Shown here: piece by piece, positions 43,178 through 62,476 of the stretch
Layout of the letters: the number at the start of each line of letters is the position of its first letter
How positions within the stretch are numbered: position 1 is the first letter of the stretch
From: Candidatus Nomurabacteria bacterium
Lineage (GTDB): Bacteria > Patescibacteriota > Patescibacteriia > HK-STAS-PATE-3
NCBI GenBank assembly: GCA_023898465.1
Contig: CP060223.1
Span: 384,001-448,000, forward strand
DNA: 64,000 bases
Reading direction: 5' to 3'
Position numbers and translations under genes: made by a program
Notes under the pieces: model-generated
What the model was told of the DNA's origin: nothing
The model's input: the letters and a program-made list of their open reading frames with translations, nothing else
Databases searched by the model: none

Positions 43178-44227
43178 ATGCCACTACCTAATTTCTCAAA
43201 TGCCTTTGGTTTAGAAATACGTGACACGGAAATACGCGTGGCACAGATTCACCGTCATGGAAAAAAGCTCTCTCTTTCTTCTTATGGTTTTTCGCAAATA
43301 CCAAACGGCGCAATGGAGCGAGGAGAGATCCTTAAATCTGATCAAGTAAAGTTAGCTATCCTCAACGCGCTTAAGTCACCTGTTGGGAAAAATTTTAGCA
43401 GTCAGTATGTAGTATGCGCTATTCCTGAGCAGCACGTTTTTACCACAGTCATCACTCTGCCGGCAAAAAAAAGTATTGAGAAAGACGACGTACAAGCTGC
43501 TGCACTACAGCAAATCCCCTATCCATTAGAAGATATTCAACTTGACTGGACTTTGGTAGATAAAGACGCAAAAACAAATTATATCCTTGTAGGGGCTGCC
43601 CCAAAAAACATAATTGCTGCGTATACTCAGGTACTTCGATCGGCGAATCTTATTCCAGTCGCTCTAGAGCCTCAGTCATCATCCATAGCGCGCGCTCTAC
43701 TGACCTCACATGACGCACAAACCCCAACCATGGTGCTGCACTTTGGACAAAAGCTCCTTACTATCTTTATCGTAAATAAAAACGTAGTATATTTTTCATC
43801 CTCTACGCCTATTTTTTCAGGTGAATCGATTATCAGTCTACTCAGTAAAAAGCTTGATTTAAATGCTGATAAGGCACGGAAGGCTGCTCAGTTATTCGGA
43901 TTACAAGCCAAAGAAGGAAAAGGCGAGGTGCGACGCGCACTTCTTCCTGAAATAAGTGCCTTAATGGAACATATTGAACAAATAAAAGAGTACTCAAGTA
44001 GCCACTTACCCGCTCCGGTGCATAACATCAGCACCATGCTAGTAACCGGAGAAATGAGCTCACTGCCTGGCCTAGCTGAATACCTACAGGAAGAGCTGCG
44101 CATACCAATTCAGCCAGGCTTACCTGGTGAGCGATATCAGCTTGAGATACCACAGAAGGAGCTTACATCGCTTGATCTGCAGTCCTCTGCTACGGTCTTA
44201 GGATTAGCTTTGCACGAACTCGCATGA
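43178..44227 (+). CDS. pilM: Type IV pilus assembly protein PilM (actin-like)
   Basis: 349 aa with the N-terminal FGLEIRDTEIRVAQI motif, the expected length, and position ahead of pilN/pilO. Confidence 0.7.
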   Translation: MPLPNFSNAFGLEIRDTEIRVAQIHRHGKKLSLSSYGFSQIPNGAMERGEILKSDQVKLAILNALKSPVGKNFSSQYVVCAIPEQHVFTTVITLPAKKSIEKDDVQAAALQQIPYPLEDIQLDWTLVDKDAKTNYILVGAAPKNIIAAYTQVLRSANLIPVALEPQSSSIARALLTSHDAQTPTMVLHFGQKLLTIFIVNKNVVYFSSSTPIFSGESIISLLSKKLDLNADKARKAAQLFGLQAKEGKGEVRRALLPEISALMEHIEQIKEYSSSHLPAPVHNISTMLVTGEMSSLPGLAEYLQEELRIPIQPGLPGERYQLEIPQKELTSLDLQSSATVLGLALHELA

Positions 44228-44784
44228 AATCACTTAACTTTCTATTTCAAGAAGATCGCCAGGCCCTCCAAAGAGCTTATCAAGAGTTGCGTTTTCAGCA
44301 CACGTCTCTGCTTATTGTATTAAGCGTTGGACTCATTTCCGGACTTGTTTGGGGTACCAACCAGCTCCTTCATGTACGCATTCAACAACTTGACGATGAA
44401 ATCCAATCCACCCAGCAAACCGAACTCGTGCAGCAAACTACTGCCGCTGAATCAAAGGTGCGTGAGTTTAATACTCTAGTAAAGTTTTTTAGTGAAGAGA
44501 CAGAACTCATCTTTCCCCTCAGTGATCGTGTTGCTGAAATTAGTAAGATAATTCCCACAGGAATAAAAGTAGATCAACTTAGCTTAAATATGAATGCAAA
44601 ACAGCTTACCTTAGCTGGCAGCGCAAGCAACCGTGATAGTTACCTTTCCCTACGTGATGCACTAGCAAACACTGGATGGTTTGAGAGCGTGGAATTACCA
44701 ATTACAGATCTACTTAGCCGGGAAAATATCCGCTTTACGCTGCAGACTGATTTAACCGATGAGTTTTTTAACATAAGCAAATGA
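44224..44784 (+). CDS. pilN: PilN-like bitopic membrane protein
   Basis: 186 aa with a single N-terminal TM, then a coiled-coil; translationally coupled to pilM. Confidence 0.5.
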   Translation: MKSLNFLFQEDRQALQRAYQELRFQHTSLLIVLSVGLISGLVWGTNQLLHVRIQQLDDEIQSTQQTELVQQTTAAESKVREFNTLVKFFSEETELIFPLSDRVAEISKIIPTGIKVDQLSLNMNAKQLTLAGSASNRDSYLSLRDALANTGWFESVELPITDLLSRENIRFTLQTDLTDEFFNISK

Positions 44785-45332
44785 AACTAGCCGGACAAAA
44801 AACTCGAGTTTTCATTATAGTCGAGCTTGGTATTTCACTCGCCTTGCTGCTACTCATCATTTTACCAAGCTGGCAAAATATTGAAGGAAGTAAAAAAACA
44901 ATAACAGAACGTCGCGTCACTCAGGCTGAGACAAATCAACTCACCGAGCGATCCAATGATCTTATCCAACGTAGCGGAGAGCTAGAGGGCAAAATTAATA
45001 CTCTGCAGGATCGCCTTATCAGCCCTGCCACTGCACTTGATTTCCTCACCCAGCTAGAATCTACCGCCTCCGCTTCAAACGTTGTATTGGATGTAAAAAG
45101 CTTTGACCAGCCTAGCGCACAAAAAAAGGAAGGGGCGCTTAGCTTGTCAGCCATTGGCAGCTTCAGTGAGGTGCTTGGCTTTATTCATGAAATTGAACGC
45201 TTAAATTGGCTCCTTCAGATAGAGAACGTCAGCTTCTCCCCTAGTGCGGCTAATAACCGCAGCCAATCAGATACAGACACGGGTAACGCAGTGACGCTCA
45301 GTCTCGAGGCGTCTACCTTCTGGAAGGAATAA
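44781..45332 (+). CDS. pilO: PilO-like bitopic membrane protein
   Basis: 183 aa with an N-terminal TM and a coiled-coil; translationally coupled to the upstream gene. Confidence 0.45.
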   Translation: MKLAGQKTRVFIIVELGISLALLLLIILPSWQNIEGSKKTITERRVTQAETNQLTERSNDLIQRSGELEGKINTLQDRLISPATALDFLTQLESTASASNVVLDVKSFDQPSAQKKEGALSLSAIGSFSEVLGFIHEIERLNWLLQIENVSFSPSAANNRSQSDTDTGNAVTLSLEASTFWKE

Positions 45333-46000: not shown

Positions 46001-47630
46001 CCAAGCATGCCCGGACAAACGCTGCGAACAAGGGGTGAGCCTGGGTAGGTCGAGTCAGAAATTCTGGATGAAATTGCACTCCAACAAAGAATGGGTGCCC
46101 GGGTAATTCTACAATCTCTGCCAAGTCCTTTTGCGTATAGGTACCAGAGACAAGCAATCCAGCTTTCTCTAATTCAGGTCGGTATTCATTATTCAATTCG
46201 TAGCGATGACGATGTCGCTCAAGTATTTTTTGCGTTCCATACGCTTTTGCCGCTACGCTATCCTTTTTTAGCTTACAAGGATATTCACCCAAGCGCATTG
46301 AACCGCCGTAATCCTTGTGTTTTAGCTTTTCCTCTTGCTCCGGCAGTATATGAATGACTGGATGTGACGTTTTTGGATTAATTTCCGTGGTATTTGCATC
46401 CTTCCACCCTAATACGTGGCGAGCAAATTCCACTACAGCTAATTGCATGCCATAGCAAAGACCAAAATACGGGATTTTATGCTCTCGAGCATATTGAATC
46501 GCTTTTATTTTTCCCTCAATACCCCTACTGCCAAATCCACCCGGAACAATTAATCCATCAAGCTTATCAAGTCCACGCAGTTTTGAGCTATTTTTTTCAA
46601 ATTCGCTCGAATCTATCCAAACAATTTCAGGCTTGGCATGTACTGCCCAAGCGGCATGCTTAATTGACTCAATAACTGATATATATGCATCGAGCAGGGT
46701 GAAATCGCCGCTACCAAAGTACTTACCAGCTATACCAATTCTCACCTTTTTCTTCGGATTCTCGATTTTTCGATTTAGGGACTTCCAATCTGCTAAATCA
46801 TTCTTGCGGGCTTTTAAGCCAAAGTTATTTAATATCTTATCTGCCAAATGCTCCTTTTCGAAATTCAAAGGAATCTGGTAAATACTCGATACATCAGGCG
46901 CGGAAATGATATCCTTGGCCGGAACGCCTGTGTTCATGGCTATGCGCTCTCTGCGTGGAGCATCAAGTGCATGTGAGCCTCGAGCCAAAATAAAATGCGG
47001 CTGTATACCTGCTGAATTAAGCGTTCTCACCGCATATTGCGTTGGCTTCGTCTTCATTTCTCCTAGATTTCCAGGAATAGGGAGATAGCTTACTAGTACG
47101 TACTGCACATCACCTGGCTGCAATTGGCTTAACATGCGAGCAGCTTCTAGGAAAAGCAAATTCTGATACTCGCCAACTGTTCCGCCAATTTCAATAAGTG
47201 CAATCTCAGCCTTACTCTTCTTCACTGCTTCACGGATGCGGCGAATGACCTCATTTGGAACGTGTGGCACAACCTCTACCTGCTTGCCTCCAAAAGCCAA
47301 ATTACGCTCAGCCTGGATGAGTGACAGGTAAACCGAGCCCGTGGTCATGTAGTTTGTCTTGGTAAGCTCAGTATTCAAAAAACGTTCGTAATTTCCAATG
47401 TCCTGATCCGTTTCCATGCCATCCTTGGTAACAAAAACTTCCCCATGCTCAGTCGGATTCATAGTACCTGCGTCAACATTAACGTAGGGATCTATTTTAA
47501 GTGAGGTAACGCGATAACCCTTACGCTGCAATAAAAGTCCGATCGATGAGGTGGCAACACCTTTACCTAAGCCAGAGAGCACGCCTCCCATTATAAAAAC
47601 ATACTTGGTGGATTTTTTTGATGTGCTCAT
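45987..47630 (-). CDS. pyrG: CTP synthase
   Basis: 547 aa with an N-terminal synthetase domain and a C-terminal GATase domain (GLCYGMQL, HPEF). Confidence 0.95.
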   Translation of the reverse strand: MSTSKKSTKYVFIMGGVLSGLGKGVATSSIGLLLQRKGYRVTSLKIDPYVNVDAGTMNPTEHGEVFVTKDGMETDQDIGNYERFLNTELTKTNYMTTGSVYLSLIQAERNLAFGGKQVEVVPHVPNEVIRRIREAVKKSKAEIALIEIGGTVGEYQNLLFLEAARMLSQLQPGDVQYVLVSYLPIPGNLGEMKTKPTQYAVRTLNSAGIQPHFILARGSHALDAPRRERIAMNTGVPAKDIISAPDVSSIYQIPLNFEKEHLADKILNNFGLKARKNDLADWKSLNRKIENPKKKVRIGIAGKYFGSGDFTLLDAYISVIESIKHAAWAVHAKPEIVWIDSSEFEKNSSKLRGLDKLDGLIVPGGFGSRGIEGKIKAIQYAREHKIPYFGLCYGMQLAVVEFARHVLGWKDANTTEINPKTSHPVIHILPEQEEKLKHKDYGGSMRLGEYPCKLKKDSVAAKAYGTQKILERHRHRYELNNEYRPELEKAGLLVSGTYTQKDLAEIVELPGHPFFVGVQFHPEFLTRPTQAHPLFAAFVRACLAKQK

Positions 47631-48073
47631 TGCTGGACCTTAATAATAATATGAAGCGACCCTTTGAGGGAGTTAATTTGCCAATCAATATTTTGCTCGC
47701 CAGCATTTTTAAGATGCTCTGGAGTAATACGGAAATGTTCAGGCACCCGAAGAGTAAGCTTTTCTTGTAAAGCCTTACGTATATCTTGTGCCCCTAAGCT
47801 GCCGTATAAAGTGCCGTCGCTATTTCCTTTTGCAAGCAGTTCAAGGGAGCTTTTTTCTATGGCCTGCTGGAGCTTTTTCAGTTGAGCATGGTTTTTTACT
47901 TCCTCATCTTTTTGCTTCTTCGCCTTCTCCTTTGCTTGAGCAATCGCTTCTGGTGATGCCACCTTGGCTAAATTCCTCGCAAACAAAAAGTTGCGGGCAT
48001 ATCCGGGCTTCACATGGTGAATTTCCCCGGCTTTTCCAAGCCCTGGTACTGAAGCTATGAGGATAACGTCCAT
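47627..48073 (-). CDS. rplI: 50S ribosomal protein L9
   Basis: MDVILIASVPGLGKAGEIHHVKPGYARNFL. The start is chosen at the internal Met. Confidence 0.8.
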   Translation of the reverse strand: MDVILIASVPGLGKAGEIHHVKPGYARNFLFARNLAKVASPEAIAQAKEKAKKQKDEEVKNHAQLKKLQQAIEKSSLELLAKGNSDGTLYGSLGAQDIRKALQEKLTLRVPEHFRITPEHLKNAGEQNIDWQINSLKGSLHIIIKVQQ

Positions 48074-48155
48074 ACTTGAATTCATGCGCATTTTAGCACA
48101 TGATGTGCAATCTGAAAAAGCTTCGCGCTATTTAGGCTATTTCGCAGCCTTTTTA

Positions 48156-49391
48156 CTACTCACTAGGAAAAAGTGTCTGGAGGGCCGCCTCTAATTGCGG
48201 ATCCCGGTCATTATCATAATCGTCCTGGGTGAGCTCAACGTTTTGATCAGGATCTAGGCCTGATTGATCAATCGAGGTCCCATTCGGAGTTAACCAGCGT
48301 GCAACCGTAATCTTTACACTTGCCCCGTTCTCTAACTGGATAAAGTCCTGGACAGAGCCTTTTCCAAAAGTAGTAACACCAACCAATTGAGAGCCGTCAT
48401 CATCCCGTAATGCCCCGGCAACAATCTCAGCCGCTGAGGCTGTACCTTCATTTACCAAAACGACAACAGGGAGGTCTTTTAATTCATGCTTACCAGTGGT
48501 CGAATAACTTATGCGCTGGCCATCCCCTTTTTCTTCAAAAAGCACTGTATCGCCTTCATTGAGAAATACGCTCGCGACATCTATCCCTGCCTGTAAATAA
48601 CCACCCGGGTTATTGCGTAAATCAAGCACTATGCCATCTGGAGAGTCTAATATCATATCGCTAATCGCCTCGTGCAGCTCAGCTTGCGTTGTGTCAGAAA
48701 AACTGGATATGCTTATGAATGCGTATTCTTTACCATTCTCAAGCGTTTTGCGCTCAGCTTTAACGCTTTTTACACTAATTGCATCACGAGTAATTGTTAG
48801 CGTTCGTGCATCCTCATCACCATTCTGCACAGTAACCTGAACAGTGGTATCTTTAGCGCCACGCAACATATCTACCGCTTGGGTTAAAGTAAGAAAGTCA
48901 GCTGGCTGATCATCAATAGCCAAGATAACATCCCCAGCTCGTACACCAGCTTTTGCTGCTGGTGAGTCTGGTAAAGGAGCGATAACAGTTAGTCTGTCTT
49001 TTTTAATGCCTATTTCGGCTCCAATACCTTCGAAATTTCCCTGGATGTCGCCTAAAAAGTCCTTTGTTTGTTCTGAGCTCAAATAAATCGTGTAAGGATC
49101 ACTTAAGCTATTCACCATTCCAGCAATTGCGCCCTCGATTAACTCATCATTCGTTACTGGCTGATGTAGGTAATCCTGCTTTATCGTGTTCCAGACGCTT
49201 TCGAATACTGCTGTACTACTCTTTGATCCAGAAACGCGCTCTAAAGCGCCTAGGAAGCCTTCTAGAGTGTCTGGATGGGGCGTGCGAAGCCACCAGCCAA
49301 GCCCAAAGCCAATAACAAGCAAAAGTAGCCCTCCAATGAAGCGCCGCTGCCGTGTTTGCAATGATTCACTACGGAAACTATACGGATCCAT
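48156..49391 (-). CDS. ctpA: Carboxy-terminal processing peptidase (S41) with PDZ domain
   Basis: N-terminal TM, PDZ domain, and S41 catalytic region VVLVNEGTASAAEIVAGAL...TFGKGSVQ. Confidence 0.85.
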   Translation of the reverse strand: MDPYSFRSESLQTRQRRFIGGLLLLVIGFGLGWWLRTPHPDTLEGFLGALERVSGSKSSTAVFESVWNTIKQDYLHQPVTNDELIEGAIAGMVNSLSDPYTIYLSSEQTKDFLGDIQGNFEGIGAEIGIKKDRLTVIAPLPDSPAAKAGVRAGDVILAIDDQPADFLTLTQAVDMLRGAKDTTVQVTVQNGDEDARTLTITRDAISVKSVKAERKTLENGKEYAFISISSFSDTTQAELHEAISDMILDSPDGIVLDLRNNPGGYLQAGIDVASVFLNEGDTVLFEEKGDGQRISYSTTGKHELKDLPVVVLVNEGTASAAEIVAGALRDDDGSQLVGVTTFGKGSVQDFIQLENGASVKITVARWLTPNGTSIDQSGLDPDQNVELTQDDYDNDRDPQLEAALQTLFPSE

Positions 49392-50644
49392 TACTCGACC
49401 CTCTCAATCTGCGCACCAAGCTCACGTAAACGCTGATCAATTCGTTCGTAGCCACGATCCACCTGTTGTACATTATCAATAACGCTTTTTCCTTTTGCGA
49501 TAAGAGCGGCGATAACCAAAGCCATACCAGCTCGAATGTCAGGTGACTCCATTTTTTTCGCAACCAGTGGCGTAGGACCTTCGACCACCACACGGTGGGG
49601 ATCAGCCATAATGATTTTTGCACCCATACGATTCAAAATGTCGGTGTAGAAAAGTCGGCCTTCATAAATAACTTCTTGAACAAGGCTCATTCCGCTAGCC
49701 TGAGTAAGTAAAACAGTAAATGGCGGCTGTAAATCAGTATTAAACCCTGGATGTTCACGAGTTCGTAATTCAAGAGCTTGCAAGTGCTTTGCTTTATGTA
49801 CAAGTACCGTGCTGTCATTTATTTCATAATTCCCACCAGCTCGCTTTAACATCGTCCAAAAGGTCGCTAAATCCTCTGGTTGCGTATCAGTAATGGCTAT
49901 TTCTTCGCCAATAAGGTTTCCTAGTACTGCGAAAGTGCCTGTTTCAATACGATCAGGCATAATTCGAGTTTTTCCTCCACCTAAGCTATCGACGCCGTGA
50001 ATTGTTAAGGTGTGATGTCCCACATTTTCTATCTTTGCGCCTAGGCTATTCAACCACTCACAGAGTGAAGCCACCTCAGGCTCCATAGCAGCGTTAATTA
50101 TCTTGGTGGTGCCCTGCGCCATCACCGCCCCTAAAATAAGGCTTTCGGTTCCGGTATGAGAAATCCAGGGAAAGGTAAATTCACCGCCCTGTATTTTTTT
50201 AGCGCTGATATGAAAAACGTCATCTTTCTCTTCGACTTTTGCGCCTAAGGCACGATATCCATCCAAGAAAAGATCAATGGGACGCTTACCAAGAACGCAA
50301 CCACCTGGAAAACTGAAGCGCACCTCACCAAATCGGGCAAGCAGCGGGGCTACACAAAGTATAGATGAGCGCAATTTAGCTGATAAGTCAGCCGGCAGCT
50401 CGCTTGTTTGGACCTCTTTAGCATTAATAACATACGTATTCTCGTGTGGATGTTGCACATCAGCACCAATAGCCCGTAGTAGGTCAGCCAAGTTATGCAC
50501 ATCTGCAATTTCAGGCACATTTTCTAGTGTCCACGTCTCTTTACTCAAAAGCGCCGCTGCCATGAATTTCAGGGCTGCATTTTTGGCACCACTCACTCGA
50601 ATACTGCCAGACAAAGTCCGGCCACCATTAATCGTAAATTGCAT
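49391..50644 (-). CDS. murA: UDP-N-acetylglucosamine 1-carboxyvinyltransferase
   Basis: 417 aa with the MurA/EPSP-synthase fold throughout. Confidence 0.9.
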   Translation of the reverse strand: MQFTINGGRTLSGSIRVSGAKNAALKFMAAALLSKETWTLENVPEIADVHNLADLLRAIGADVQHPHENTYVINAKEVQTSELPADLSAKLRSSILCVAPLLARFGEVRFSFPGGCVLGKRPIDLFLDGYRALGAKVEEKDDVFHISAKKIQGGEFTFPWISHTGTESLILGAVMAQGTTKIINAAMEPEVASLCEWLNSLGAKIENVGHHTLTIHGVDSLGGGKTRIMPDRIETGTFAVLGNLIGEEIAITDTQPEDLATFWTMLKRAGGNYEINDSTVLVHKAKHLQALELRTREHPGFNTDLQPPFTVLLTQASGMSLVQEVIYEGRLFYTDILNRMGAKIIMADPHRVVVEGPTPLVAKKMESPDIRAGMALVIAALIAKGKSVIDNVQQVDRGYERIDQRLRELGAQIERVE

Positions 50645-50682
50645 CTCTTGGTGAAGTATTGTTCAATCTGCTACACTAAATT

Positions 50683-52080
50683 TTGCTATACATACTGTAT
50701 CGTAAAGCCCCCAAACCGTCAAAGATGACCCCTAGGGTACGCCGCCTGTATTTCACTAGTGCAATAATTGCCTTTATTATCCTGGCACCATTATTCGTGT
50801 TTTATGCCAGTGGCTATAGAGTCAATTTTAGCAATTTTTCCATTTATCAGACTGGAATTCTGGTTATTTCATCCCAGCCCAAAGGAGCTGATGTTTTTCT
50901 CAATGATAAAAAACTCCGGGCTACTACCCCTATTCGCTTTAGTACTGTTGCCCCTGGTCAATACAAGCTACGGATAGAGAAAGCGGACTATCTACCTTGG
51001 TCATCGCAAATTCGAATAGCCGGAAAAGCGTCTACGGTTATTTCTGACTTACCACTTTTTTATGCCTCCCCCAAAGAAACACAACTTTGGTCAGGACCAT
51101 TTGAAGCTGGACGTCTTTCAGGGGACCATAAATCAATTGTCTTAAGCACACCGACTGAGGAAGGAAATAACCTTCATGTATTAAGCCTCAATGGTACTTC
51201 ACGGCAAAGTATTCAAAATATCGAGGCAGGAGAAATTAAAGACCTGCAGTGGAGCGCGCAAAAAAATTACATTCTCCTCAAAATGCTCCGGAACGAAAAA
51301 AATATCTGGCTGCTCGTAAACACCAATAGTGCGAGCACACGAGATATAACTGACTTGTTACAACAGGACGTACTGGAGACTTGGTGGAGCAAGCAAAGCG
51401 ACGATTTTCTTTTTTACAAAACCTCAAATGGTTTTTATCGACTTGACATCTTTACCGGAGAATCAGAGCTCATAACGACTGATGTGGTTAGCTCTTTCCT
51501 ACCTAATGCGAACGGCGGCTACTTTATTGCCTCGGATACATTCGGATTTCATATTTTTTCATATGATTCAACTCGAAGCGAGCCTGAACTAATACAAGAC
51601 CTGGATAATGATGCGTACACCTTGCTCGAACAAAAAAACCAATGGTTTGGACTACTTCATACCGGGCGTCTAAGCTTGAGCCTCATTCGCAATACACCTG
51701 GATCCCCCTTACTTACCCTACCGCTTTCTGTTTCCGTGAATGCAATTGCCTGGAACCCAAATAATGATGATGAAATATTAGTAGCAGATGGCTACGAGCT
51801 TAATTTAGTCAACGTGCAAAGCGGACAAGTACAATTACTTACGCGAACAAGTCAAAACTTTGAAGATTTTGGATGGTTGCCCAACACACACATGGCATAT
51901 ACTTCTAACAATGGAAGAATTGAAGTGTACACCACAAAACAAGAATATCCATCACAAAGCACGCTCATTCAGAGCGCGGAGGGAAAATATTTTATAGGCG
52001 CAAGTAATGATGGTAAATCTCTACTCTTCTCTGAATTGAGAAGTGGGCAAATGTTGCTTACGCGCTACGACATTCGTTAG
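50683..52080 (+). CDS. PEGA-domain membrane-anchored protein with a C-terminal beta-propeller-like region
   Basis: N-terminal TM, a PEGA-like segment (SSQPKGADVFLNDKKLRATTPIRF...APGQYKLRIEKADY), then about 330 aa of repetitive beta-rich sequence. Confidence 0.5.
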   Translation: MLYILYRKAPKPSKMTPRVRRLYFTSAIIAFIILAPLFVFYASGYRVNFSNFSIYQTGILVISSQPKGADVFLNDKKLRATTPIRFSTVAPGQYKLRIEKADYLPWSSQIRIAGKASTVISDLPLFYASPKETQLWSGPFEAGRLSGDHKSIVLSTPTEEGNNLHVLSLNGTSRQSIQNIEAGEIKDLQWSAQKNYILLKMLRNEKNIWLLVNTNSASTRDITDLLQQDVLETWWSKQSDDFLFYKTSNGFYRLDIFTGESELITTDVVSSFLPNANGGYFIASDTFGFHIFSYDSTRSEPELIQDLDNDAYTLLEQKNQWFGLLHTGRLSLSLIRNTPGSPLLTLPLSVSVNAIAWNPNNDDEILVADGYELNLVNVQSGQVQLLTRTSQNFEDFGWLPNTHMAYTSNNGRIEVYTTKQEYPSQSTLIQSAEGKYFIGASNDGKSLLFSELRSGQMLLTRYDIR

Positions 52081-52082
52081 GA

Positions 52083-52832
52083 CTAGGCTCCATTCCAGGA
52101 GTGCTGAGGATTTTTTTTGCAATGGTCAGCTACTAACTGTCCCGCCTGAAGTAAGCTGTCGAAGGATTCTCCGCCATCGCCCCACCAACCACGAAGGATT
52201 TGGTAGCTCATAGTCCCCTGCTGTATGTAATGATTATTTACATCGGTGATTTCTAGCTCACCGCGAGCTGACGGCTGCAGGGTTTTGACGACTTCAAACA
52301 CACTACTATCATACATATATACACCAATCACAGCCAAATTAGACTTTGGCTCACTTGGCTTTTCTACTATTTGTACGAGCTTTTCTCCTTGAATTTCAGC
52401 AATGCCAAATGATTGAGGGTTTTCTACTTCTTTGAGGAAAATCTTTCCGCCCTTTTCTTGTGCTTCAAAGTCTTTTACTGCTTCTTGGATAGGATCTTCC
52501 AAAATGTTATCTCCTAGGATGACGGCCACCTTATCACCATCAGCAAAGTGCTCAGCCAAACCTAAAGCCTGAGCAATTCCACCGGCTTTTTCTTGAACTT
52601 CATAGGAAAGCCGCACTCCAAGCTCATCACCCGAGCCAAGTAGCTCTAAGAAATGACCAGCGTGTCCGCGTCCCGAAACAATCAAAATATTTGTCACTCC
52701 AGCTTGCTTCAGCGTAAGTATTGGATAATAAATCATTGGCTTGTTATACACTGCCAATAAGTGCTTATTTGTTACTTTGGTGAGTGGCGCAAGTCGACTA
52801 CCAGTTCCACCAGCTAAAATAATACCTTTCAT
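52083..52832 (-). CDS. rmlA: Glucose-1-phosphate thymidylyltransferase-like sugar nucleotidyltransferase (short form)
   Basis: MKGIILAGGTGSRLAPLT...NKPMIYYP, the G1P nucleotidyltransferase signature. Confidence 0.7.
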   Translation of the reverse strand: MKGIILAGGTGSRLAPLTKVTNKHLLAVYNKPMIYYPILTLKQAGVTNILIVSGRGHAGHFLELLGSGDELGVRLSYEVQEKAGGIAQALGLAEHFADGDKVAVILGDNILEDPIQEAVKDFEAQEKGGKIFLKEVENPQSFGIAEIQGEKLVQIVEKPSEPKSNLAVIGVYMYDSSVFEVVKTLQPSARGELEITDVNNHYIQQGTMSYQILRGWWGDGGESFDSLLQAGQLVADHCKKNPQHSWNGA

Positions 52833-52836
52833 GAGA

Positions 52837-53661
52837 TTATCCTTTCGTGGTCAAATACTCTTGTAAGGCTGCTTCCCAATGCCGCAGAGCAGGGGCTTTG
52901 GTATTTTGCAGTATAGAAATTTTTGGACGTTTGGCTAAGCGAGGAAAATCATTTGTGGCTATTGCCTCAACCGGCACATCAAGTTTTTTATAGGCAAATA
53001 TTTTCTTTGCAAAATCAAACCAAGTAGTGCTTCCACTATTTACCAAATGATAAATCCCAAATGGCGCTTGTTCTCGAACTAAGCGATAAGCTGCATCAGC
53101 TAAATCTTTTGCATAAGTTGGACAACCATGCTGATCATTCACCACACGTAAAACCCTCTTTTCTCGTGCTGCAGTTAACATCATATCTACAAAATTCTTT
53201 CCATTTCTCCCATAGAGCCATGAGGTACGGATCAAATAAAATCGCGTTGTGGCTTCTTGTAATAAACTTTCACCTTGCAGCTTCGTTCTCCCATAAGCGT
53301 TTAATGGGTTGGGAGTTTCGGTCTCAGTATATCCTCCGTCTTTTTCTCCATCAAACACATAATCAGTCGAAAAATGCATCATGACTGCACCAATATCAGC
53401 ACAAGAAGTTGCTATATACCCTACCGCATCTCCATTCACTTTATTAGCAACATCTTCGTGATTTTCACACTCATCAACAGCGGTATAGGCAGCGGCATTT
53501 ACCACTAAATCGGGTTTTAGCTTTTTGAGTTTTTTCTTTACATCATCAGCATCACTAATATCCAGGTCTTCTTTATCCCATAAGGTGCAAGTTTCCGCGG
53601 CGAACGCTCGTTGCAGCTCAAAACCAAGCATACCTTTGGCGCCAAGTATTAAGACCTTCAT
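52837..53661 (-). CDS. rmlD: dTDP-4-dehydrorhamnose reductase
   Basis: 274 aa SDR with MKVLILGAKGMLG and the active-site YxxxK region. Confidence 0.75.
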   Translation of the reverse strand: MKVLILGAKGMLGFELQRAFAAETCTLWDKEDLDISDADDVKKKLKKLKPDLVVNAAAYTAVDECENHEDVANKVNGDAVGYIATSCADIGAVMMHFSTDYVFDGEKDGGYTETETPNPLNAYGRTKLQGESLLQEATTRFYLIRTSWLYGRNGKNFVDMMLTAAREKRVLRVVNDQHGCPTYAKDLADAAYRLVREQAPFGIYHLVNSGSTTWFDFAKKIFAYKKLDVPVEAIATNDFPRLAKRPKISILQNTKAPALRHWEAALQEYLTTKG

Positions 53662-54677
53662 GCTGAGTCTCCTTTAGTATCTCCGTACTGCTTGGCGTAG
53701 TACTCTTGATATTCGCCTGATTTCAGTGGGCGCCACCAGGCTTCATTCTTTTTGTACCACTCTACTGTTTCTTGAATGCCGTCCTGAAAAGTATAGCTTG
53801 GCTTCCAGCCGAGATTTCTCAATTTTTCACTATTTAAGGCATAGCGCAGATCATGACCTGGACGATCTTTTACCCGCTCAATACTTTCCTCACCCTTTCC
53901 TAGCTGCTTCAATAACTCAGAGGTAAGTTCAAGATTTGTGATGCGCTCTCCGGAACCGATATTATATGATTGACCTAAGTCGCCTTTCCGTAATACTAAA
54001 TCTACCGCGCGAGAATGATCGCGTACAAAAAGCCATTCACGAACATTTTTCCCATCCCCATACAGCGGAACCTTTTTACCCTCAAGTAAATTGGTAATAA
54101 AAAGCGGAATCACTTTTTCGGGATAATGATGCCACCCATAATTATTTGTTGCGTGTGTGATAAGTACTGGCGTCTCGTAGGTATGCCAATACGCCATTAT
54201 AAGATGTTCGGCAGCGGCTTTTGAGGCTGAATACGGACTCGTAGGTCGGAAAGGATATTCTTCACTTGCTTCCCCCTCAGCCAGACTGCCAAAAACCTCA
54301 TCTGTTGATATATGCAAGAAACGGGAAACTTTTGATGCACGCATTGCTTCAAGTAGCACGTGTGTACCCATGACATCGGTGCGAAGGAAGGCCTCTGGAT
54401 CATGGATTGAACGATCCACATGTGTTTCTGCAGCATAATTTACTATCACGTCGGGCTGAAAGTCTTGTATTGCCTTCTTTACTGCAAGCGCATCACAAAT
54501 ATCAGCCTGTACAAAATGATAGCGTGAATTATCAGCTACACTCGCTAAATTAGCTAAATTGCCGGCGTATGTGAGTTTATCATAATTTAGCACCTCATCT
54601 TCTGGATGTTCTGACAGCACAAATCGGATAAAATCCGACCCCATAAAACCAGCCCCTCCGGTCACCAATATACGCAT
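53658..54677 (-). CDS. rmlB: dTDP-glucose 4,6-dehydratase
   Basis: MRILVTGGAGFMGSDFIR...YDKLTYAGNL. The YxxxK motif and the overall length fit RmlB. Confidence 0.9.
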   Translation of the reverse strand: MRILVTGGAGFMGSDFIRFVLSEHPEDEVLNYDKLTYAGNLANLASVADNSRYHFVQADICDALAVKKAIQDFQPDVIVNYAAETHVDRSIHDPEAFLRTDVMGTHVLLEAMRASKVSRFLHISTDEVFGSLAEGEASEEYPFRPTSPYSASKAAAEHLIMAYWHTYETPVLITHATNNYGWHHYPEKVIPLFITNLLEGKKVPLYGDGKNVREWLFVRDHSRAVDLVLRKGDLGQSYNIGSGERITNLELTSELLKQLGKGEESIERVKDRPGHDLRYALNSEKLRNLGWKPSYTFQDGIQETVEWYKKNEAWWRPLKSGEYQEYYAKQYGDTKGDSA

Positions 54678-54726
54678 ATGTACTTAGATTAGCCTGATTT
54701 TAGGGTAATTGGCAAGACCTGTTTCG

Positions 54727-54755
54727 TTGACATTACTCAAGCGCTTTTGTAAGGT
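54727..54755 (+). promoter_or_regulatory. Sigma70-like promoter: TTGACA-N17-TAAGGT, upstream of the 54802 ORF
   Basis: Read directly from the sequence. An AGGAG Shine-Dalgarno lies 7 nt before the ATG at 54802. Confidence 0.5.
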
Positions 54756-54801
54756 TTCAACCTCGAGGCCATGTGCACATACTTAGCCCAGGAGAACTGA
54801 A

Positions 54802-55092
54802 ATGCCTGATTGCAATCTCAACGTCCACGGCATCCGAGTACCTGACGAGCGCTGGCGGAAAATGAAAGCAGTTCATGATTCCTGCGAAACTGCAGGTGTC
54901 CAGCTGCCAGAAGAAGTCGAGATCTACTTCGATGGACATGAACCTGATCCGAGCGGAATACTCACTGACCTGGCTGACCCCATCGTCACCAAGTGGGAGC
55001 GCGAGGAAGACGACGATCAGGAAGGTATCGAGATCGACCTGACTCAGCTTCCAGAGGGCGTGACCAAGCTTCGCGTCACCATCAGCTACTAG
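54802..55092 (+). CDS. Hypothetical hyper-acidic 96-aa protein; GC3-rich, compositionally foreign
   Basis: Good Shine-Dalgarno and ATG, with a terminator 20 nt downstream. About 26% of residues are D or E. Codon third positions are strongly G/C-biased, unlike the surrounding genes. Confidence 0.5.
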   Translation: MPDCNLNVHGIRVPDERWRKMKAVHDSCETAGVQLPEEVEIYFDGHEPDPSGILTDLADPIVTKWEREEDDDQEGIEIDLTQLPEGVTKLRVTISY

Positions 55093-55110
55093 CACCCGCC
55101 CTCGACACAG

Positions 55111-55145
55111 AGTCATAGCTCATCAAGCTATGGCTCTTTTTCTTG
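55111..55145 (+). terminator. Rho-independent terminator: 9-bp stem agtcatagc/gctatggct, then CTTTTTCTT
   Basis: Read directly from the sequence. It overlaps the 3' end of the convergent minus-strand ORF. Confidence 0.6.
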
Positions 55146-55485
55146 CTCCTAAAAAGATAAAGACTACTCCAATAGCCAGCGGTACTAGCATGTGCACGGG
55201 AATCTCACCTTCAGCAATGATGCCAATAATGAGACCCACAAACACTGCACCGGCGCTGAGATATCCGCCAAGTCGTTCATATTTCCAACCCAGGGCAAGA
55301 CCAATAAACATTATGGGAAAAACGCTAAGCCACGTGTTATCCCAAAGCGTATAACTCGAGTCAATAAAGGGTAAGGGATTTCCATAGCCAAAGTAGAATG
55401 GAAGTCCAAATGAAATGACTAAAAGGCTGAGAATGCGCATAGTCCAGCGCAGAGCTCTATACTGAGAAGAAGAAAAATGTCTCAT
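55123..55485 (-). CDS. Hypothetical polytopic membrane protein (about 120 aa) with native-like AT-rich composition
   Basis: Three or four hydrophobic helices. The start is chosen at the ATG (MRHFSSS); the ORF track extends to 55521. Confidence 0.45.
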   Translation of the reverse strand: MRHFSSSQYRALRWTMRILSLLVISFGLPFYFGYGNPLPFIDSSYTLWDNTWLSVFPIMFIGLALGWKYERLGGYLSAGAVFVGLIIGIIAEGEIPVHMLVPLAIGVVFIFLGARKRAIA

Positions 55486-55507
55486 GTCTGTAGTATACTC
55501 CCGCCTT

Positions 55508-55527
55508 CCTTGTTTAAACAAACAAGG
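55508..55527. promoter_or_regulatory. Hairpin / inverted repeat CCTTGTTT-AAAC-AAACAAGG in a divergent intergenic region
   Basis: An 8-bp perfect inverted repeat with a 4-nt loop, lying between the minus-strand membrane ORF start and the plus-strand GTG-start ORF. Candidate operator. Confidence 0.3.
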
Positions 55528-55603
55528 CTTGCTTGATTTGCAATATGTTGCTAAGGTCTTTTGTCTAGCTCATTTGCACATTCACTGAACAAGGAGCACA
55601 AAG

Positions 55604-55972
55604 GTGAAGTCCAGGCAAAAAACGGGTCCGATTTCAAGATATCTTGCTTGGTGCACTTCACGAGAGGCCACTGAGCAAGAACGCCGAGACAGGCTAAAGC
55701 AGCGTCTTTCAGGGGCAATCCCACGCGGTACCTGCCAGTGGCTGCGCGAAGAATGCGACATACCGATCGATGGACTCTTCAAGAAAGAAAGCATCACGGT
55801 CCTAATTACTAGAAGAGGTCCTGGAGCAAAAGCTCTTGGTCTCTCGCCTGAACTCAAAGGGACTGATGAGCAACTCAGAGCTCTCCAGGCTGCTTGGCGA
55901 GGCGCAATCACAGTTACCTGGCAATGGACTGAGGATCGAAGCACTCTGCGTATTAGCTTCAAGCGGGCTTAA
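55604..55972 (+). CDS. Hypothetical 122-aa protein with a GTG start preceded by an AAGGAG Shine-Dalgarno
   Basis: The ORF has a consensus Shine-Dalgarno 7 nt upstream of GTG, and the hairpin terminator at 55995 follows its stop. No family recognised. It overlaps an alternative-frame ORF, 55836..56447. Confidence 0.4.
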   Translation: MKSRQKTGPISRYLAWCTSREATEQERRDRLKQRLSGAIPRGTCQWLREECDIPIDGLFKKESITVLITRRGPGAKALGLSPELKGTDEQLRALQAAWRGAITVTWQWTEDRSTLRISFKRA

Positions 55973-55994
55973 TCCTCAATACTCACCACAACAA

Positions 55995-56030
55995 AGACCT
56001 GTTCGACGTTTGTTCGCAGGTCTTTCCTTA
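55995..56030 (+). terminator. Hairpin agacctg-N15-caggtct followed by TTCCTTA; putative terminator
   Basis: A 7-bp perfect stem read directly from the sequence, immediately upstream of a TTGACA -35 element. Confidence 0.45.
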
Positions 56031-56059
56031 TTGACAAAAATGAGGTTTTGGACTATATT
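56031..56059 (+). promoter_or_regulatory. Near-consensus sigma70 promoter TTGACA-N17-TATATT
   Basis: Read directly from the sequence. It lies 60-75 nt upstream of the first of the two paralogous small ORFs. Confidence 0.55.
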
Positions 56060-56120
56060 ACCTCGTTCTTTACATCCGTCTAGTACCGTGCAGGAGGGCG
56101 AACAAGTGCCAGTAAAAAAG

Positions 56121-56447
56121 ATGGTGAAGATTATGAACCACGTTGAAATCCTGAAAAACACTCCGCTCCTTCGGGAGTTCCGCTTGGCAACTGCTGAGGA
56201 TATCGCGCCAGGAGCAGAGCTGTTCGAGGCTGAGGTGGGCTTTGATCTCAGAATTGAACAACCACGTCGGATCCGTCTGGCCGACGAACCGATACAAGAA
56301 GCTTACGGAGAAGATCATGTGGTCTACTCCCAGGCCAATGGCCTGAAGGACCTTACGGTCACCGTACAACGCTTCCTGTCCACCGAAGCAGAACCTGAGA
56401 CCCTCTTCCCACACCGCTACACAATCCTCTACCTCGTCAAGATCTAG
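56121..56447 (+). CDS. Hypothetical small protein, paralog A (about 105-109 aa), GC3-rich
   Basis: Same length as the downstream ORF 56478..56801 and about 30% identity with it, including the C-terminal ...LYLVKI versus ...LYLAKN. The start could be at 56121 or 56133; the ORF-track frame is open back to 55836. Confidence 0.5.
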   Translation: MVKIMNHVEILKNTPLLREFRLATAEDIAPGAELFEAEVGFDLRIEQPRRIRLADEPIQEAYGEDHVVYSQANGLKDLTVTVQRFLSTEAEPETLFPHRYTILYLVKI

Positions 56448-56477
56448 CGCTCACAGGGCTTCCACCAAGGAGGATTC

Positions 56478-56801
56478 ATGTCCACGATGATCAACCGTCA
56501 AGATATCCTGAACCGGGCACCGGATCTTCCGGGTCGCCGCTTGGTCACCCGAGACGAAGTGATCCCGGGCGCGAAGCTCGATATGGTTCATGTTGACCTG
56601 GACGGCAAGGCTCAGTGGCTTCAGCCGATCCAGATCGACGAAGAAGCCACCGGTGAGCGGGTAGGCACGACCTACGTGTTCTACCACTGCGACGGTCATC
56701 CCAGTCAGTGCTTCGTCCCCTTCGATGATTTCGTTGGTGTCGAGGTGGAAGCAGAGAGCTGCGGACCCTTCCTCACCACCCTCTACCTCGCGAAAAACTG
56801 A
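56478..56801 (+). CDS. Hypothetical small protein, paralog B (107 aa), GC3-rich
   Basis: Perfect AAGGAGG Shine-Dalgarno 5 nt before the ATG. About 58-60% GC with foreign codon usage. Followed by two terminators. Confidence 0.55.
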   Translation: MSTMINRQDILNRAPDLPGRRLVTRDEVIPGAKLDMVHVDLDGKAQWLQPIQIDEEATGERVGTTYVFYHCDGHPSQCFVPFDDFVGVEVEAESCGPFLTTLYLAKN

Positions 56802-56810
56802 CCCCCCTCA

Positions 56811-56848
56811 AAGCCGCCAATATCACTTCATGTGTGAGGCGGCTTTTT
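56811..56848 (+). terminator. Rho-independent terminator: aagccgcc ... ggcggctt with an inner tcac/gtga stem, then TTTTT
   Basis: Read directly from the sequence, starting 10 nt after the stop of paralog B. Confidence 0.65.
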
Positions 56849-56860
56849 CATTAAACAAAC

Positions 56861-56892
56861 GACAGGGCACAGAGGCCCTGTCTATCTGTTTT
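56861..56892. terminator. Bidirectional terminator: gacagggc-acagag-gccctgtc, with T-rich tracts on both sides
   Basis: An 8-bp perfect stem. Plus-strand side TATCTGTTTT; minus-strand side GTTTGTTT. It serves the convergent ahcY gene. Confidence 0.6.
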
Positions 56893-56959
56893 ACAAAGTT
56901 ATGCAAATTTAGATTACTGCTTCCGGTCGTAGTGCAGCTTCATTGCTACTCATAACTTC

Positions 56960-59137
<2,178 letters not shown>

Positions 59138-59151
<14 letters not shown>

Positions 59152-59632
59152 GTGCAGTTTCCTTTGACCAATCAAATGCTATTTTTGGATCGTCATACTT
59201 TAGACGTTTTTCATCCGGGTTCGCTGGATTATACGAAGAAGTAGTGTGATAAAACAAAATGACCGGGTCTTGGCTCATCACTTTATATCCATGCGCGACA
59301 CCAATTGGAATAACAATCACCTTATAATCATCCTTGCCTGCAAAAAGGACTTGAGTCTCCCCCTTTGTTGGAGAATCTTCACGTAGGTCATGAAGCACGA
59401 CCATTGCTTTTCCGGTCGCCACAAACCACAAATCATCTTGATGCTCGTGATAGTGAAAAGCTTTAATAGTACCTTCATACGCGACGGTCATGGTGCTTTG
59501 CCCGAAGCGCTGAAGCAACATGTCATCATCACGTAACACTTCCATTAAAAAACCAGGCTTACCCACATCTTCATCCCGGTCAGGTATGTCTTGATGCACC
59601 GTCAATTTTTTTATTTTTACACCTTCAATCAT
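59138..59632 (-). CDS. rmlC: Cupin-fold dTDP-4-dehydrorhamnose 3,5-epimerase-like protein
   Basis: About 165 aa cupin with the His-rich segment KAFHYHEHQDDLWFVATGKAMVV. The rmlC assignment rests on context (rmlA, rmlB and rmlD nearby) and is tentative. Confidence 0.45.
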
Positions 59633-60017
59633 CGTGAGAAATGCTGCGAATATCAGCACTCAGTATACTCCAGGCGAGGATACCGGTCAACGCAGCGACA
59701 ATCCATCCACCCAAGCCAAAATCCTTAAGTAATAACCCAGTAAGAATAAGCGTAACAACACTTCCTAGTAATGGAAACACGATGCGGAGTAAGGTCACTG
59801 AATTTTCTTCTGACTGCTCAAATATATGTGCGTCCTGCGCAATGGTCAGTACGCCAATGAGAATCACTGTCCCAACGAGATAAGGGTAGGAAATAAAATT
59901 CTGAGGGAAATGACTGACAAAGGGATCAATCAATAATAAAATAAAAGTAAAGCAAAGCAGAGCAGCAAAAATATCACGGGCGAGGATATTAAATTTTGGT
60001 TCAGGTGAATGATCCAT
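59625..60017 (-). CDS. Hypothetical membrane protein (130 aa)
   Basis: Three or four TM helices. Confidence 0.4.
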   Translation of the reverse strand: MDHSPEPKFNILARDIFAALLCFTFILLLIDPFVSHFPQNFISYPYLVGTVILIGVLTIAQDAHIFEQSEENSVTLLRIVFPLLGSVVTLILTGLLLKDFGLGGWIVAALTGILAWSILSADIRSISHDD

Positions 60018-60021
60018 GATA

Positions 60022-60864
60022 CTAGTTTAAAACACGTGACCAAAGGGGCGTCTTGGTAAATTGTGTCTGTAACCAATCAAGATTTACCCTACCTGCATCA
60101 GACTGCATAGATGGTGCACGTAGAGAAAAATAAAATCGATTATCGTTTACAAACAAGCTTGGTAGATGGAAAGTCAACTCAGCAACCGACCATTGACCAT
60201 CTGGGATTGGTGGACGATAAGTGCTAAGTATTTCATCATAAGATAAAAGTTCATCGACTGTACTTGGCTCTACCTCTATTCCACTCATCTCAGGAAGTAT
60301 TACTTCGGCTGATAGATCATTCCTTACCTGGCTTAAACCGGGCGCATACCAAGCTAATGCAAGGTTCGGATGATCATCACTTGCAAAAAATTCATCGATT
60401 GTGTTAAAACGTTTTTCTTTTTGCCAAAGTCGTACACTGCCATTGTCTAATACATGCCAGGTAAGATTATCAAGTGCATCACTTTTAATAGGGATATTTA
60501 CTGGCGGGATATCTAGCCTTGTTTGCGGATTAAGAAAAACAATAGGTCGATCTTGATTTTGAAATCGGAGGCGCATCTGAATATCTACAAACGCAACACT
60601 CGGACGTACCGTAAAGCGCAATTCCTGGTCAATAAAATACTGTGGCTTATTGGAGGAGCTGGACTCAGTTAATTGCAGTCGAGTTGGATCATCCACTTTA
60701 ACTATTGACGAGGAATCATGAAAATCTGTCCGGAGTGTTACTACGCCAAAAGCGCCGGTGTACTGTCCGGCTAACCAAATAAGCACTGCGAAAGGTGACA
60801 GCCAAATAAAAATCCGCAAAACAAGGATTGTCTTATTTTTTTTCTCAGCAGGTATTTCTTCCAT
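60022..60864 (-). CDS. Hypothetical membrane-anchored protein
   Basis: N-terminal TM plus a soluble domain of about 240 aa. The start is chosen at the internal MEEIPAEKK. Confidence 0.4.
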   Translation of the reverse strand: MEEIPAEKKNKTILVLRIFIWLSPFAVLIWLAGQYTGAFGVVTLRTDFHDSSSIVKVDDPTRLQLTESSSSNKPQYFIDQELRFTVRPSVAFVDIQMRLRFQNQDRPIVFLNPQTRLDIPPVNIPIKSDALDNLTWHVLDNGSVRLWQKEKRFNTIDEFFASDDHPNLALAWYAPGLSQVRNDLSAEVILPEMSGIEVEPSTVDELLSYDEILSTYRPPIPDGQWSVAELTFHLPSLFVNDNRFYFSLRAPSMQSDAGRVNLDWLQTQFTKTPLWSRVLN

Positions 60865-60868
60865 GTGT

Positions 60869-62476
60869 TTATCTTTCCAGGGTATAGAGACTGAGTCCAC
60901 CCTCCAAGGGACTAACTAAACGCCAGCTGCGTCCAGTCTGCTGCGCATAGGCTTGTAATTGCGCTGCTTCCACCTCGCCCCAAACTATAGCATAGACAGG
61001 TACTTTTTCGACAAGCGCATTTGCCGCACGTTGATGTTCTGCTTGTAATACATTGTATCCAATCACTTTTCGTAATGGCCAAAATACCTTGTCTTGATCT
61101 CGAGCTAGCAATACTCCATTTGAGGGAACTTTTTCCAGCACTGTCTCTTTATTATAGCTTGCAATATTTTCTTGCACCTCGCGATCAAGTGCCAGCCCAT
61201 AGAGAGGATCAGCATAAATTCGTGTCAGGGAAAACAGCATGAGTATGAACAAAAGGAAGAGCGAAATTTTCTTACCAAAACGTATTCTGTGTAAAAGAAA
61301 ATGCAAAGCGACTACCATAAAAGGCACAAGGAGTAGGAGTCCCGGCATAAGGTAACGCAAATATGATGATCCAAAGAGCAATACTGACGGGTCAAGAAAT
61401 TCGCTAAAGGTGAAACTCCCGTAAAGCAACACTAAATAGAGCAAGGAAAAAAGTGTTACCCAAGCAAAGGCAAATGCTTCACGGTTTTGTTTTGCACCAC
61501 GGAAGATGACGAGGAGTAAGCCAATAAGTCCAAGAATAGTCCATACGCCTAAAAAAGATGAGAGGTAATGGACAACAACTTGAGCAATCTGTCTGATTTG
61601 AATACCAAAAGGAAAAAAGAGGTGACCAAGACTTACCCAAAGTGCGGTCAGACTATTTAAGTGAACTCCGTTATTTGTTGCACTATCAGTAATCGTATAA
61701 CCAGTGCTGAGAAAATTGCCAAAGGTGAGCTGCTGGTAATACGCAATCGGAATAAAACACAACACGAAAATTACTGCGATAAGGAAAAGGTGACTCCATG
61801 GAACTTTTTGACGAACTACTATCCAATAGAGAGCAAAAGCTGGTAGCACCCAGACCAATTCCGAGGTTCTTATGACTAGCGTCATACCTAGCATTACCGC
61901 AAAACCAATTGCGTCAACAATCCTCTTCTTTCCTAACCACCTCACAAAGAAAAACCAGGCAATAAATAGGAAGTCAACAAAAATAGTGTTATGCCAAAGC
62001 GGTCGGTGATTATAAAACCAGAAAATCGGATGGATAAGCCACAAGACAGAACTCAACCACCCGACCTGACTATTCCAGATTCGACGAAAAAGCGCAAAAA
62101 CAAAAAAACTTGTGAATATACTTATCGCTGCTGTAAAAAATGGCAACGCTGCTTCACCAAAAATACGAATACCTAGCCCATAGAACAAAGGCAATCCTAG
62201 CCATGAAGCCGGAACAATACTATCCCCGATTGCGCGCATGCTACGTGGATGCAGTAATCCGCCTGCTAAAGACTCAAGCGACTCCTCTATGACAAATGAA
62301 CCTGTGCGAGCATAGTGTCGAGCAAAAAATGCATTAGCCGTCTCATCAGGAGATCCGTATGTTTGCGTGCCGTGTAAACCAAAAGTATAGAGAAAAAACA
62401 TAACAAGCCCAAGAGCTGCTAAAGCCCAAAACGGTCGAGCTGCTTTGTCCTGTAGTACTGAAGTAAATGTCGACAT
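60869..62476 (-). CDS. GT-C fold glycosyltransferase (ArnT / PMT-like)
   Basis: The N-terminal YGSPDETANAFFARHYARTGSF motif (DE in the first periplasmic loop) and at least 12 TM helices. Confidence 0.65.
   Translation of the reverse strand: MSTFTSVLQDKAARPFWALAALGLVMFFLYTFGLHGTQTYGSPDETANAFFARHYARTGSFVIEESLESLAGGLLHPRSMRAIGDSIVPASWLGLPLFYGLGIRIFGEAALPFFTAAISIFTSFFVFALFRRIWNSQVGWLSSVLWLIHPIFWFYNHRPLWHNTIFVDFLFIAWFFFVRWLGKKRIVDAIGFAVMLGMTLVIRTSELVWVLPAFALYWIVVRQKVPWSHLFLIAVIFVLCFIPIAYYQQLTFGNFLSTGYTITDSATNNGVHLNSLTALWVSLGHLFFPFGIQIRQIAQVVVHYLSSFLGVWTILGLIGLLLVIFRGAKQNREAFAFAWVTLFSLLYLVLLYGSFTFSEFLDPSVLLFGSSYLRYLMPGLLLLVPFMVVALHFLLHRIRFGKKISLFLLFILMLFSLTRIYADPLYGLALDREVQENIASYNKETVLEKVPSNGVLLARDQDKVFWPLRKVIGYNVLQAEHQRAANALVEKVPVYAIVWGEVEAAQLQAYAQQTGRSWRLVSPLEGGLSLYTLER

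Follow-up and report, generated by a model that had tools for sequence, protein, structure and literature searches.

A pair of small genes lying one behind the other on the forward strand was analysed within a 64,000-nucleotide stretch of the genome of a Candidatus Nomurabacteria bacterium (contig CP060223.1, positions 384,001 to 448,000), which is called the window below and is numbered from its first letter. The two genes, copy 1 and copy 2, are separated by a spacer of 30 nucleotides (nt) and sit between rmlB and ahcY in a string of minus-strand genes (rmlC, pfkB and ahcY on one side; rmlB, rmlD and rmlA on the other). In the initial annotation, they had been described as a tandem array of paralogs that ends a foreign patch, with a promoter and terminators of its own, and had been given an immunity, defence or anti-defence label. 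The features of the pair and of the loci compared with it are collected in Table 1.

Table 1. Coordinates of the paired genes, their predicted signals and related features. Positions refer to the window unless a contig handle is given; MFE, minimum free energy; z, deviation from shuffled sequences.
Feature	Position	Strand	Details
'203-aa extension' of the copy 1 frame	55836..56105	+	judged non-coding
Predicted hairpin upstream of the promoter	55993..56025	+	MFE -14.9 kcal/mol, z = -3.0 vs shuffles
Predicted sigma-70-like promoter, TTGACA-17-TATATT	56031..56059	+	11/12 consensus positions; consensus match only
Perfect AGGAGG ribosome-binding site, copy 1	56092..56097	+	8 nt 5' of in-frame GTG 56106
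Copy 1, divergent paralog	56106 or 56121..56447	+	113 amino acids (aa) from GTG 56106 or 108 aa from ATG 56121
Perfect AGGAGG ribosome-binding site, copy 2	56468..56473	+	4 nt 5' of the copy 2 ATG, within the spacer
Copy 2, canonical family member	56478..56801	+	107 aa
First predicted terminator-like hairpin after copy 2	56810..56846	+	short U-run; MFE -18.5 kcal/mol, z = -5.2
Second predicted terminator-like hairpin, bidirectional	56861 to 56882 or 56892	both	MFE -16.2 (plus) and -19.2 (minus) kcal/mol; consensus scan on both strands
Divergence tract, window vs contig L001	56613..56905		3' half of copy 2 and terminator region
Family gene in the fusA-uvrB slot	L096 2007-2345; L097 5088-5402		two related genomes

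Both copies belong to one protein family. When the 108-residue form of copy 1 was aligned with copy 2 by using BLOSUM62, the global and local alignments ran end to end over 106-107 residues, with 32 identities in 107 positions (30%) and a single gap of one residue. The Smith-Waterman score of 105 was reached by none of 2000 shuffles (25.4 +/- 4.7; z = 17), phmmer gave 29.9 bits (E = 2.9e-11), and BLASTP with sensitive seeding gave 29.9% identity over 107 amino acids (E = 3e-12). Default BLASTP and tblastn returned zero matches between the copies because they share no seed word pair, which is a failure of seeding and not a lack of similarity. A family profile hidden Markov model (HMM) was scored that contained 30 homologues from other genomes and neither of the window copies, with E-values set to 1.84e9 sequences, and it matched both proteins over their full length, with 82.1 bits (E = 3e-18) for copy 1 and 120.8 bits (E = 3e-30) for copy 2. 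As both copies are matched by a profile from which they were excluded, the paralogy is real and independent of any single pairwise alignment. The end-to-end likeness of about 30% that had been claimed was borne out by these formal statistics, and the blocks that had been listed as shared (IL..P.L, RL.T, PGA.L, V.Y and T.LYL.K) were all found in the alignment.

For copy 1, the choice of start codon affects what the gene is taken to be. It is highly improbable that copy 1 is really a 203-amino-acid protein (55836..56447), or the 193-amino-acid form, and not a simple paralog of copy 2, even though the open frame reaches back to 55806 and offers a TTG at 55836 and the automatic gene call on contig L001, from a second strain, chose the 193-residue form. 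Position 1 of the family HMM aligns to residue 106 of the long frame, which is position 56121, and a comparable N-terminal extension was carried by none of the homologues. In a codon score (log-odds) trained on 39 long open reading frames (ORFs) of the window, copy 1 scored 0.211 and copy 2 0.141 per codon, against 0.257 +/- 0.074 for native 100-codon windows, whereas the stretch 55836-56120 scored -0.028 and had a flat G+C content over the three codon positions (0.53, 0.46 and 0.44); the extension also had zero Pfam matches. Since the homology begins at 56121 and the extension looks non-coding and includes the promoter, the upstream hairpin and the AGGAGG, copy 1 starts at 56106 or 56121 and not at 55836. 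The short model favoured in the initial annotation is thus retained, but the GTG at 56106 is at least as good a start as the ATG at 56121 that had been proposed.

The overlapping ORF at 55604..55972 (122 amino acids, with AAGGAG upstream) scored 0.047 per codon, and both this ORF and the 203/193-residue extension had near-zero codon scores and zero family matches. A convincing gene is absent from the whole of 55522-56105 (about 580 nt), which is identical in the second strain. This stretch could be non-coding or a decayed gene.

The signals around the pair are consistent with a transcription unit of its own. The promoter-like site is the best-scoring one in 54500-57500, and a consensus scan found no promoter-like or terminator-like site in the spacer between the copies. 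A ribosome-binding match of at least 5 nt precedes just 7 of 44 long native ORFs of the window. The upstream hairpin and both downstream hairpins fold with better energy than their shuffles; the upstream one has no good U-run on its 3' side, so its role as a terminator is uncertain, while the bidirectional hairpin probably also ends the convergent ahcY (56960..58216, minus strand). The dedicated promoter and the downstream terminator hairpins that had been claimed are supported as predictions. The promoter would drive transcription of the two genes as one unit, with each gene translated from its own AGGAGG and the predicted terminators lying after copy 2.

When 1.84 billion cluster representatives were searched exhaustively with HMMER, just 34 proteins were returned at E <= 0.001, and three of these, large Ig-like or Calx-beta repeat proteins, were spurious. 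The remaining members are stand-alone proteins of about 100-130 amino acids that carry the motifs [YF]RL.T.(E/D)D..PGA.L.M, I.LD..P, YV.Y.C....QCFVP...F and GP..T.LYL; most of them are acidic (isoelectric point 4.3-5.6) and they are apparently cytoplasmic. In a word-indexed protein search, copy 2 had one homologue (93% identical) and copy 1 had none, even though the gene call P0002 of contig L001 was listed by the exhaustive search. Neither copy had a match in Pfam or NCBIfam, and the 33 members had no consistent match in these two libraries; PHROGs gave no match for the two copies or the 33 members, and PADLOC none for the two copies. GTDB representative genomes searched with copy 2 also gave no match, and the family profiles matched no PDB sequence other than kojibiose phosphorylase, by chance. 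As judged by sequence, the family is new and is contained in none of the libraries searched. Its neighbourhoods, with many small genes, NUDIX, PEGA and DUF4012, together with one 0.2-um groundwater sample, suggest that its hosts are uncultivated bacteria with small genomes.

Within this family, copy 2 is the canonical member. It retains 30 of 39 family-conserved positions, including Cys71, Cys78 and Cys95, and both the YHC...QCFVP and CGP..TTLYL motifs. Copy 1 retains 26 of the 39 and has lost the whole YHC...QCFVP block; C71, Q77-C78-F79, P81 and G96 of the family are missing from it. The losses in the two copies are not complementary, as the overlap of lost positions equals chance expectation. 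A zinc site formed by H70, C71, C78 and C95 was also rejected: family members do not generally conserve these residues, and none of the three cysteines is present in copy 1.

The copies are not the product of a recent tandem duplication, as none of 300 bootstrap neighbour-joining trees placed copy 1 and copy 2 as sisters. The proteins P0003 and P0004 scored 155 and 140 against copy 1 and 251 and 233 against copy 2, while the copies scored 105 against each other. From the trees and scores, copy 1 and copy 2 are old paralogs that diverged anciently. Nearly all family genomes have one copy within the DNA available, and besides the window just one contig, L095, has two; with most genomes single-copy and the window copies never sisters, the label of a tandem array was overstated. 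A type II toxin-antitoxin pair was considered and rejected, since copy 1 and copy 2 are homologues of one another and neither fits any toxin or antitoxin model.

On L095 (8001-9779), the two family genes, on one strand and separated by 1.1 kb, encode P0013 and P0026, which are 42% identical; between them, a gene with a DKNYY domain lies on the opposite strand. Both family proteins lack the cysteines of the family.

Structure prediction of both copies had been proposed as a check, and their AlphaFold2 models were confident, with a predicted local distance difference test (pLDDT) score of 91.2 for copy 1 (33 sequences) and 90.5 for copy 2 (three-sequence alignment). The order of elements is alike in the two models: a short N-terminal helix, a barrel of strands with a long hairpin, a short helix and a C-terminal strand. 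Both copies are thus predicted to be SH3/Tudor-like beta-barrels with an added N-terminal helix and C-terminal strand. Foldseek gave weak matches only against PDB (best E 0.2) and no significant match against BFVD (best E 0.03). As modelled, the proteins would belong to a known fold class, of which the family is a variant, with no specific structural relative found in PDB or BFVD.

Three groups of small barrels can be compared with these models. WYL-type Sm/SH3-like barrels (PafBC, CapW and BrxR) had the top Foldseek probabilities against PDB (0.89 for PafBC), but with E of 0.2-1 and TM-scores of about 0.35 these are not significant, and Pfam WYL had zero matches; WYL-type barrels are small sensor modules fused to a helix-turn-helix in defence or stress regulators, whereas the window proteins stand alone. 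DUF1653 (PDB 3be3) and similar proteins are stand-alone small barrels of bacteria and phages. DUF1653 superposes with a root-mean-square deviation of 4.0 A over 62 residues (Foldseek E 0.25-0.35, not significant), but its proteins are about 30 residues shorter than the window proteins, and its Pfam model is unmatched. The third group is the Tudor-like RNA-polymerase-interacting domain of CarD, CdnL and Mfd.

It is conceivable that the family members are accessory factors that dock onto core machinery, with the barrel used as in the Tudor-like RNA-polymerase-interacting domains of CarD/CdnL, Mfd and UvrD, for example in transcription or transcription-coupled repair. We regard this as unlikely. 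Its basis is generic fold scores together with two adjacencies that are near chance, and the Pfam model CarD_CdnL_TRCF is unmatched, at E <= 1 for the two copies and E <= 0.1 for the 33 members. Unlike CarD, the window proteins are single-domain, carry the extra N-terminal helix and C-terminal strand and lack the C-terminal helical domain. CarD is also near-universal within its phyla, while the window family is rare and variable.

Contig L001 carries the same arrangement as the window and is 99.2% identical over 15.8 kb, with 133 differences, of which 30 fall in the 293-nt divergence tract (Table 1). Compared with 0.66 differences per 100 nt elsewhere over 15.5 kb, such a cluster has a Poisson probability of 3e-25. 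Copy 1 and the rest of 54.7-56.6 kb are almost identical in the two strains. The two alleles of copy 2 differ by 10 synonymous and 7 non-synonymous changes, and the ratio of non-synonymous to synonymous substitution rates (dN/dS) is 0.19; copy 2 is under purifying selection. The tract fits a divergent allele that was imported by homologous recombination, and its pattern is unlike targeted hypermutation. A diversity-generating retroelement was rejected as the source of the substitution cluster because the changes are mostly synonymous transitions and are not adenine-specific, and gene conversion from copy 1 into copy 2 was rejected because the copies are too dissimilar.

Over 46487-62280, the comparison with L001 is a mosaic. 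Blocks with about 1.5 differences per 100 nt (ctpS to an S41 peptidase gene, rmlA and rmlB) alternate with nearly identical ones (aroA; pfkB through a 292-residue gene). This suggests that recombination is frequent in the population.

It could still be argued that the pair is functionless acquired DNA in decay, with the similarity of the copies as a relic of duplication. The family is rare and its function is not known, its composition is atypical, and copy 1 has lost several family-conserved residues. Against this, both frames are intact in the two strains, copy 2 shows the dN/dS given above, the codon statistics are gene-like, and both copies have confident AlphaFold2 folds and perfect ribosome-binding sites, so we consider decay very improbable. 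Both genes are real and constrained.

A second pair of genomes shows how quickly the family diverges. In L096 and L097, a family gene lies in a common arrangement of fusA, family gene, uvrB and DUF218 (Table 1). The amino-acid identity between the two genomes is 94% for EF-G, 90% for UvrB and 71% for the DUF218 protein, and 43.5% for the family protein; the DNA sequences of the family gene are about 50% identical, and those of its flanks 80-84%. As EF-G and UvrB are unusually conserved comparators, the family gene belongs to the fast tail of the distribution and does not lie outside it. In both genomes, a conserved GC-rich terminator-like hairpin (CCCC.GTG...CGGGGGCGTTTC) was also recognised by eye upstream of uvrB.

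The composition of the family genes is unusual as well. In 10 of the 10 loci with gene tables (L001-L003, L007, L091 and L094-L098), as for the pair in the window, the third-position G+C of the family gene is the highest or near-highest of its neighbourhood of about 16 kb, with ranks of 1/24, 1/22, 1/19, 4/17, 1 and 2/22, 2/9, 1/10, 2/13, 1/13, and 1 and 3/16. This amounts to an offset of about +0.2, independent of the base composition of the host. High expression was rejected as the cause, since the third-position G+C of EF-Tu, EF-G, S10 and L9 in those loci is not elevated. The atypical composition noted for a 'foreign patch' is real. With the excess found at all ten loci, the G+C-rich patch is largely a property of the family and not only of this insertion. 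The excess could come from recurrent replacement by horizontal transfer, from GC-biased gene conversion at a recombination hot spot or from selection. In bacteria, recombination has been reported to be linked to the G+C content of genes (PMC4450053).

The genomic context gives no fixed partner. In the window, the pair has genes of the rhamnose pathway, S-adenosylhomocysteine hydrolase, a PfkB kinase and a type IV pilus operon as neighbours. About 17 further independent family neighbourhoods were examined, for 16 of which gene tables or Pfam scans of the flanking genes were available, and no conserved neighbour was found across them. The genes that flank family members include SRAP, HicAB, NUDIX, folD, a NUDIX-RNase H fusion, infC, pnp, an IS481 transposase, genes with DKNYY and many small genes with no assigned function. 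A search for homologues next to toxin domains had been recommended, and no toxin gene of the RHS, LXG or CdiA type was seen in the window or in these neighbourhoods, where many small neighbours are unannotated. As several of the small neighbours lack a Pfam annotation, a novel toxin beside the family genes is possible. Searches of 50,697 phage and 72,556 plasmid records gave zero protein or DNA matches, and IMG/VR viral contigs gave zero family matches. Neither Rfam and tRNA scans nor a search for flanking direct repeats that would mark an insertion found anything. The neighbouring AhcY matched proteins from a wide range of phyla, the best one among the GTDB representatives being 66% identical.

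The label of immunity, defence or anti-defence is therefore unsupported by the context. The idea behind it is that the proteins could be orphan immunity proteins against the polymorphic toxins of competitors, or inhibitors of defence systems, with divergent copies widening the range of targets. Polymorphic-toxin immunity proteins (CdiI, Imm and SUKH) and orphan immunity genes are likewise small, often acidic and fast-evolving, and they can be divergent neighbouring paralogs that are exchanged by recombination. The small size, acidic character and high beta content of the window proteins agree with the idea, as do the fast evolution of the family in a conserved slot and the recombination tract that brings in a divergent allele. 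The family is also rare and patchily distributed and has an atypical composition in every host, and HicAB, PemK or YafQ modules, an IS481 transposase or a serine recombinase are found close to some members. However, no toxin domain (RHS, LXG, CdiA-CT and similar) adjoins the genes in the contexts examined, no Pfam immunity family or PHROG was matched among the 33 members, and homologues are missing from the phage, plasmid and viral-contig collections. The family is also usually single-copy and not an array, among housekeeping or miscellaneous small genes, with several members next to folD, fusA and uvrB, pnp or infC. On this balance the idea is unlikely, if somewhat less so than docking onto core machinery, and a role in some genetic conflict is possible because the family evolves fast and recombines.

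We favour, with a probability of about 0.5, the reading that the pair is a co-transcribed unit of two soluble protein-binding modules, which are old paralogs of a rare family. The unit would encode two small-barrel paralogs that diverged anciently, the canonical copy 2 and a copy 1 without the cysteine-containing YHC...QCFVP motif. The barrels may act as soluble protein-binding modules, and the two copies probably act jointly, perhaps as a hetero-oligomer, on a binding partner that would be encoded elsewhere or come from outside the cell. Paralogs encoded in one operon and small barrels generally tend to assemble. The hetero-oligomer was proposed because of this tendency, the predicted co-transcription and the long retention of the copies as a divergent pair, and for no other reason.

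The fast divergence, frequent recombination and third-position G+C excess together suggest an accessory gene of quick turnover and not a core housekeeping factor. A more speculative extension of the favoured reading, to which we give little weight, is that the family is a stand-alone, rapidly exchanged 'binder' of uncultivated bacteria that probably have small genomes. In it, a Tudor/SH3-like barrel, in the window a hetero-oligomer of the two paralogs, would neutralise an external effector or a protein of a mobile element and would need no toxin gene linked to it; the third-position G+C excess throughout the family would be the trace of a recombination hot spot.

The finding is a modest one: a new family is defined, with its motifs, a confident predicted fold and correct gene boundaries, and there is evidence for real genes under selection. 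The toxin-immunity or anti-defence label, although attractive, is withdrawn as unsupported. The G+C excess, seen throughout the family, occurs together with local recombination and fast divergence, and this combination is unusual in population-genetic terms. It could be used to test for GC-biased gene conversion, or for recurrent replacement of alleles, in bacteria that have not been cultivated. As long as it lacks a partner and a phenotype, the family opens no long-standing question.

Several other features of the surrounding DNA can be described. The rhamnose-pathway genes are split over 52083-59659 on the minus strand, with rmlA, rmlD and rmlB on one side and rmlC beyond ahcY and the PfkB kinase gene; between rmlB and ahcY, the string is interrupted by the insertion of the plus-strand pair and its neighbours. 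At a distance of 10 kb upstream, a type IV pilus-like operon (37312-45332, plus strand) encodes PilC/T2SS-F, PilM, PilN, unknowns and two N-methyl pilin-like proteins, one of 735 amino acids.

Closer to the pair, a gene for a DUF7670 membrane protein (55123-55521, minus strand; Pfam E = 1.7e-12) lies between the pair and a 96-residue acidic ORF. With a third-position G+C of 0.39, the DUF7670 gene resembles native genes, and the composition of the 'foreign patch' is thus a mosaic. The acidic ORF (54802-55092, plus strand) has a gene-like codon score of 0.228 per codon, an AGGAG ribosome-binding site and a third-position G+C of 0.61, as high as that of the pair. It is absent from the other family loci and has a weak TerD-like Pfam match (E = 0.004), and it may have been acquired together with the pair.
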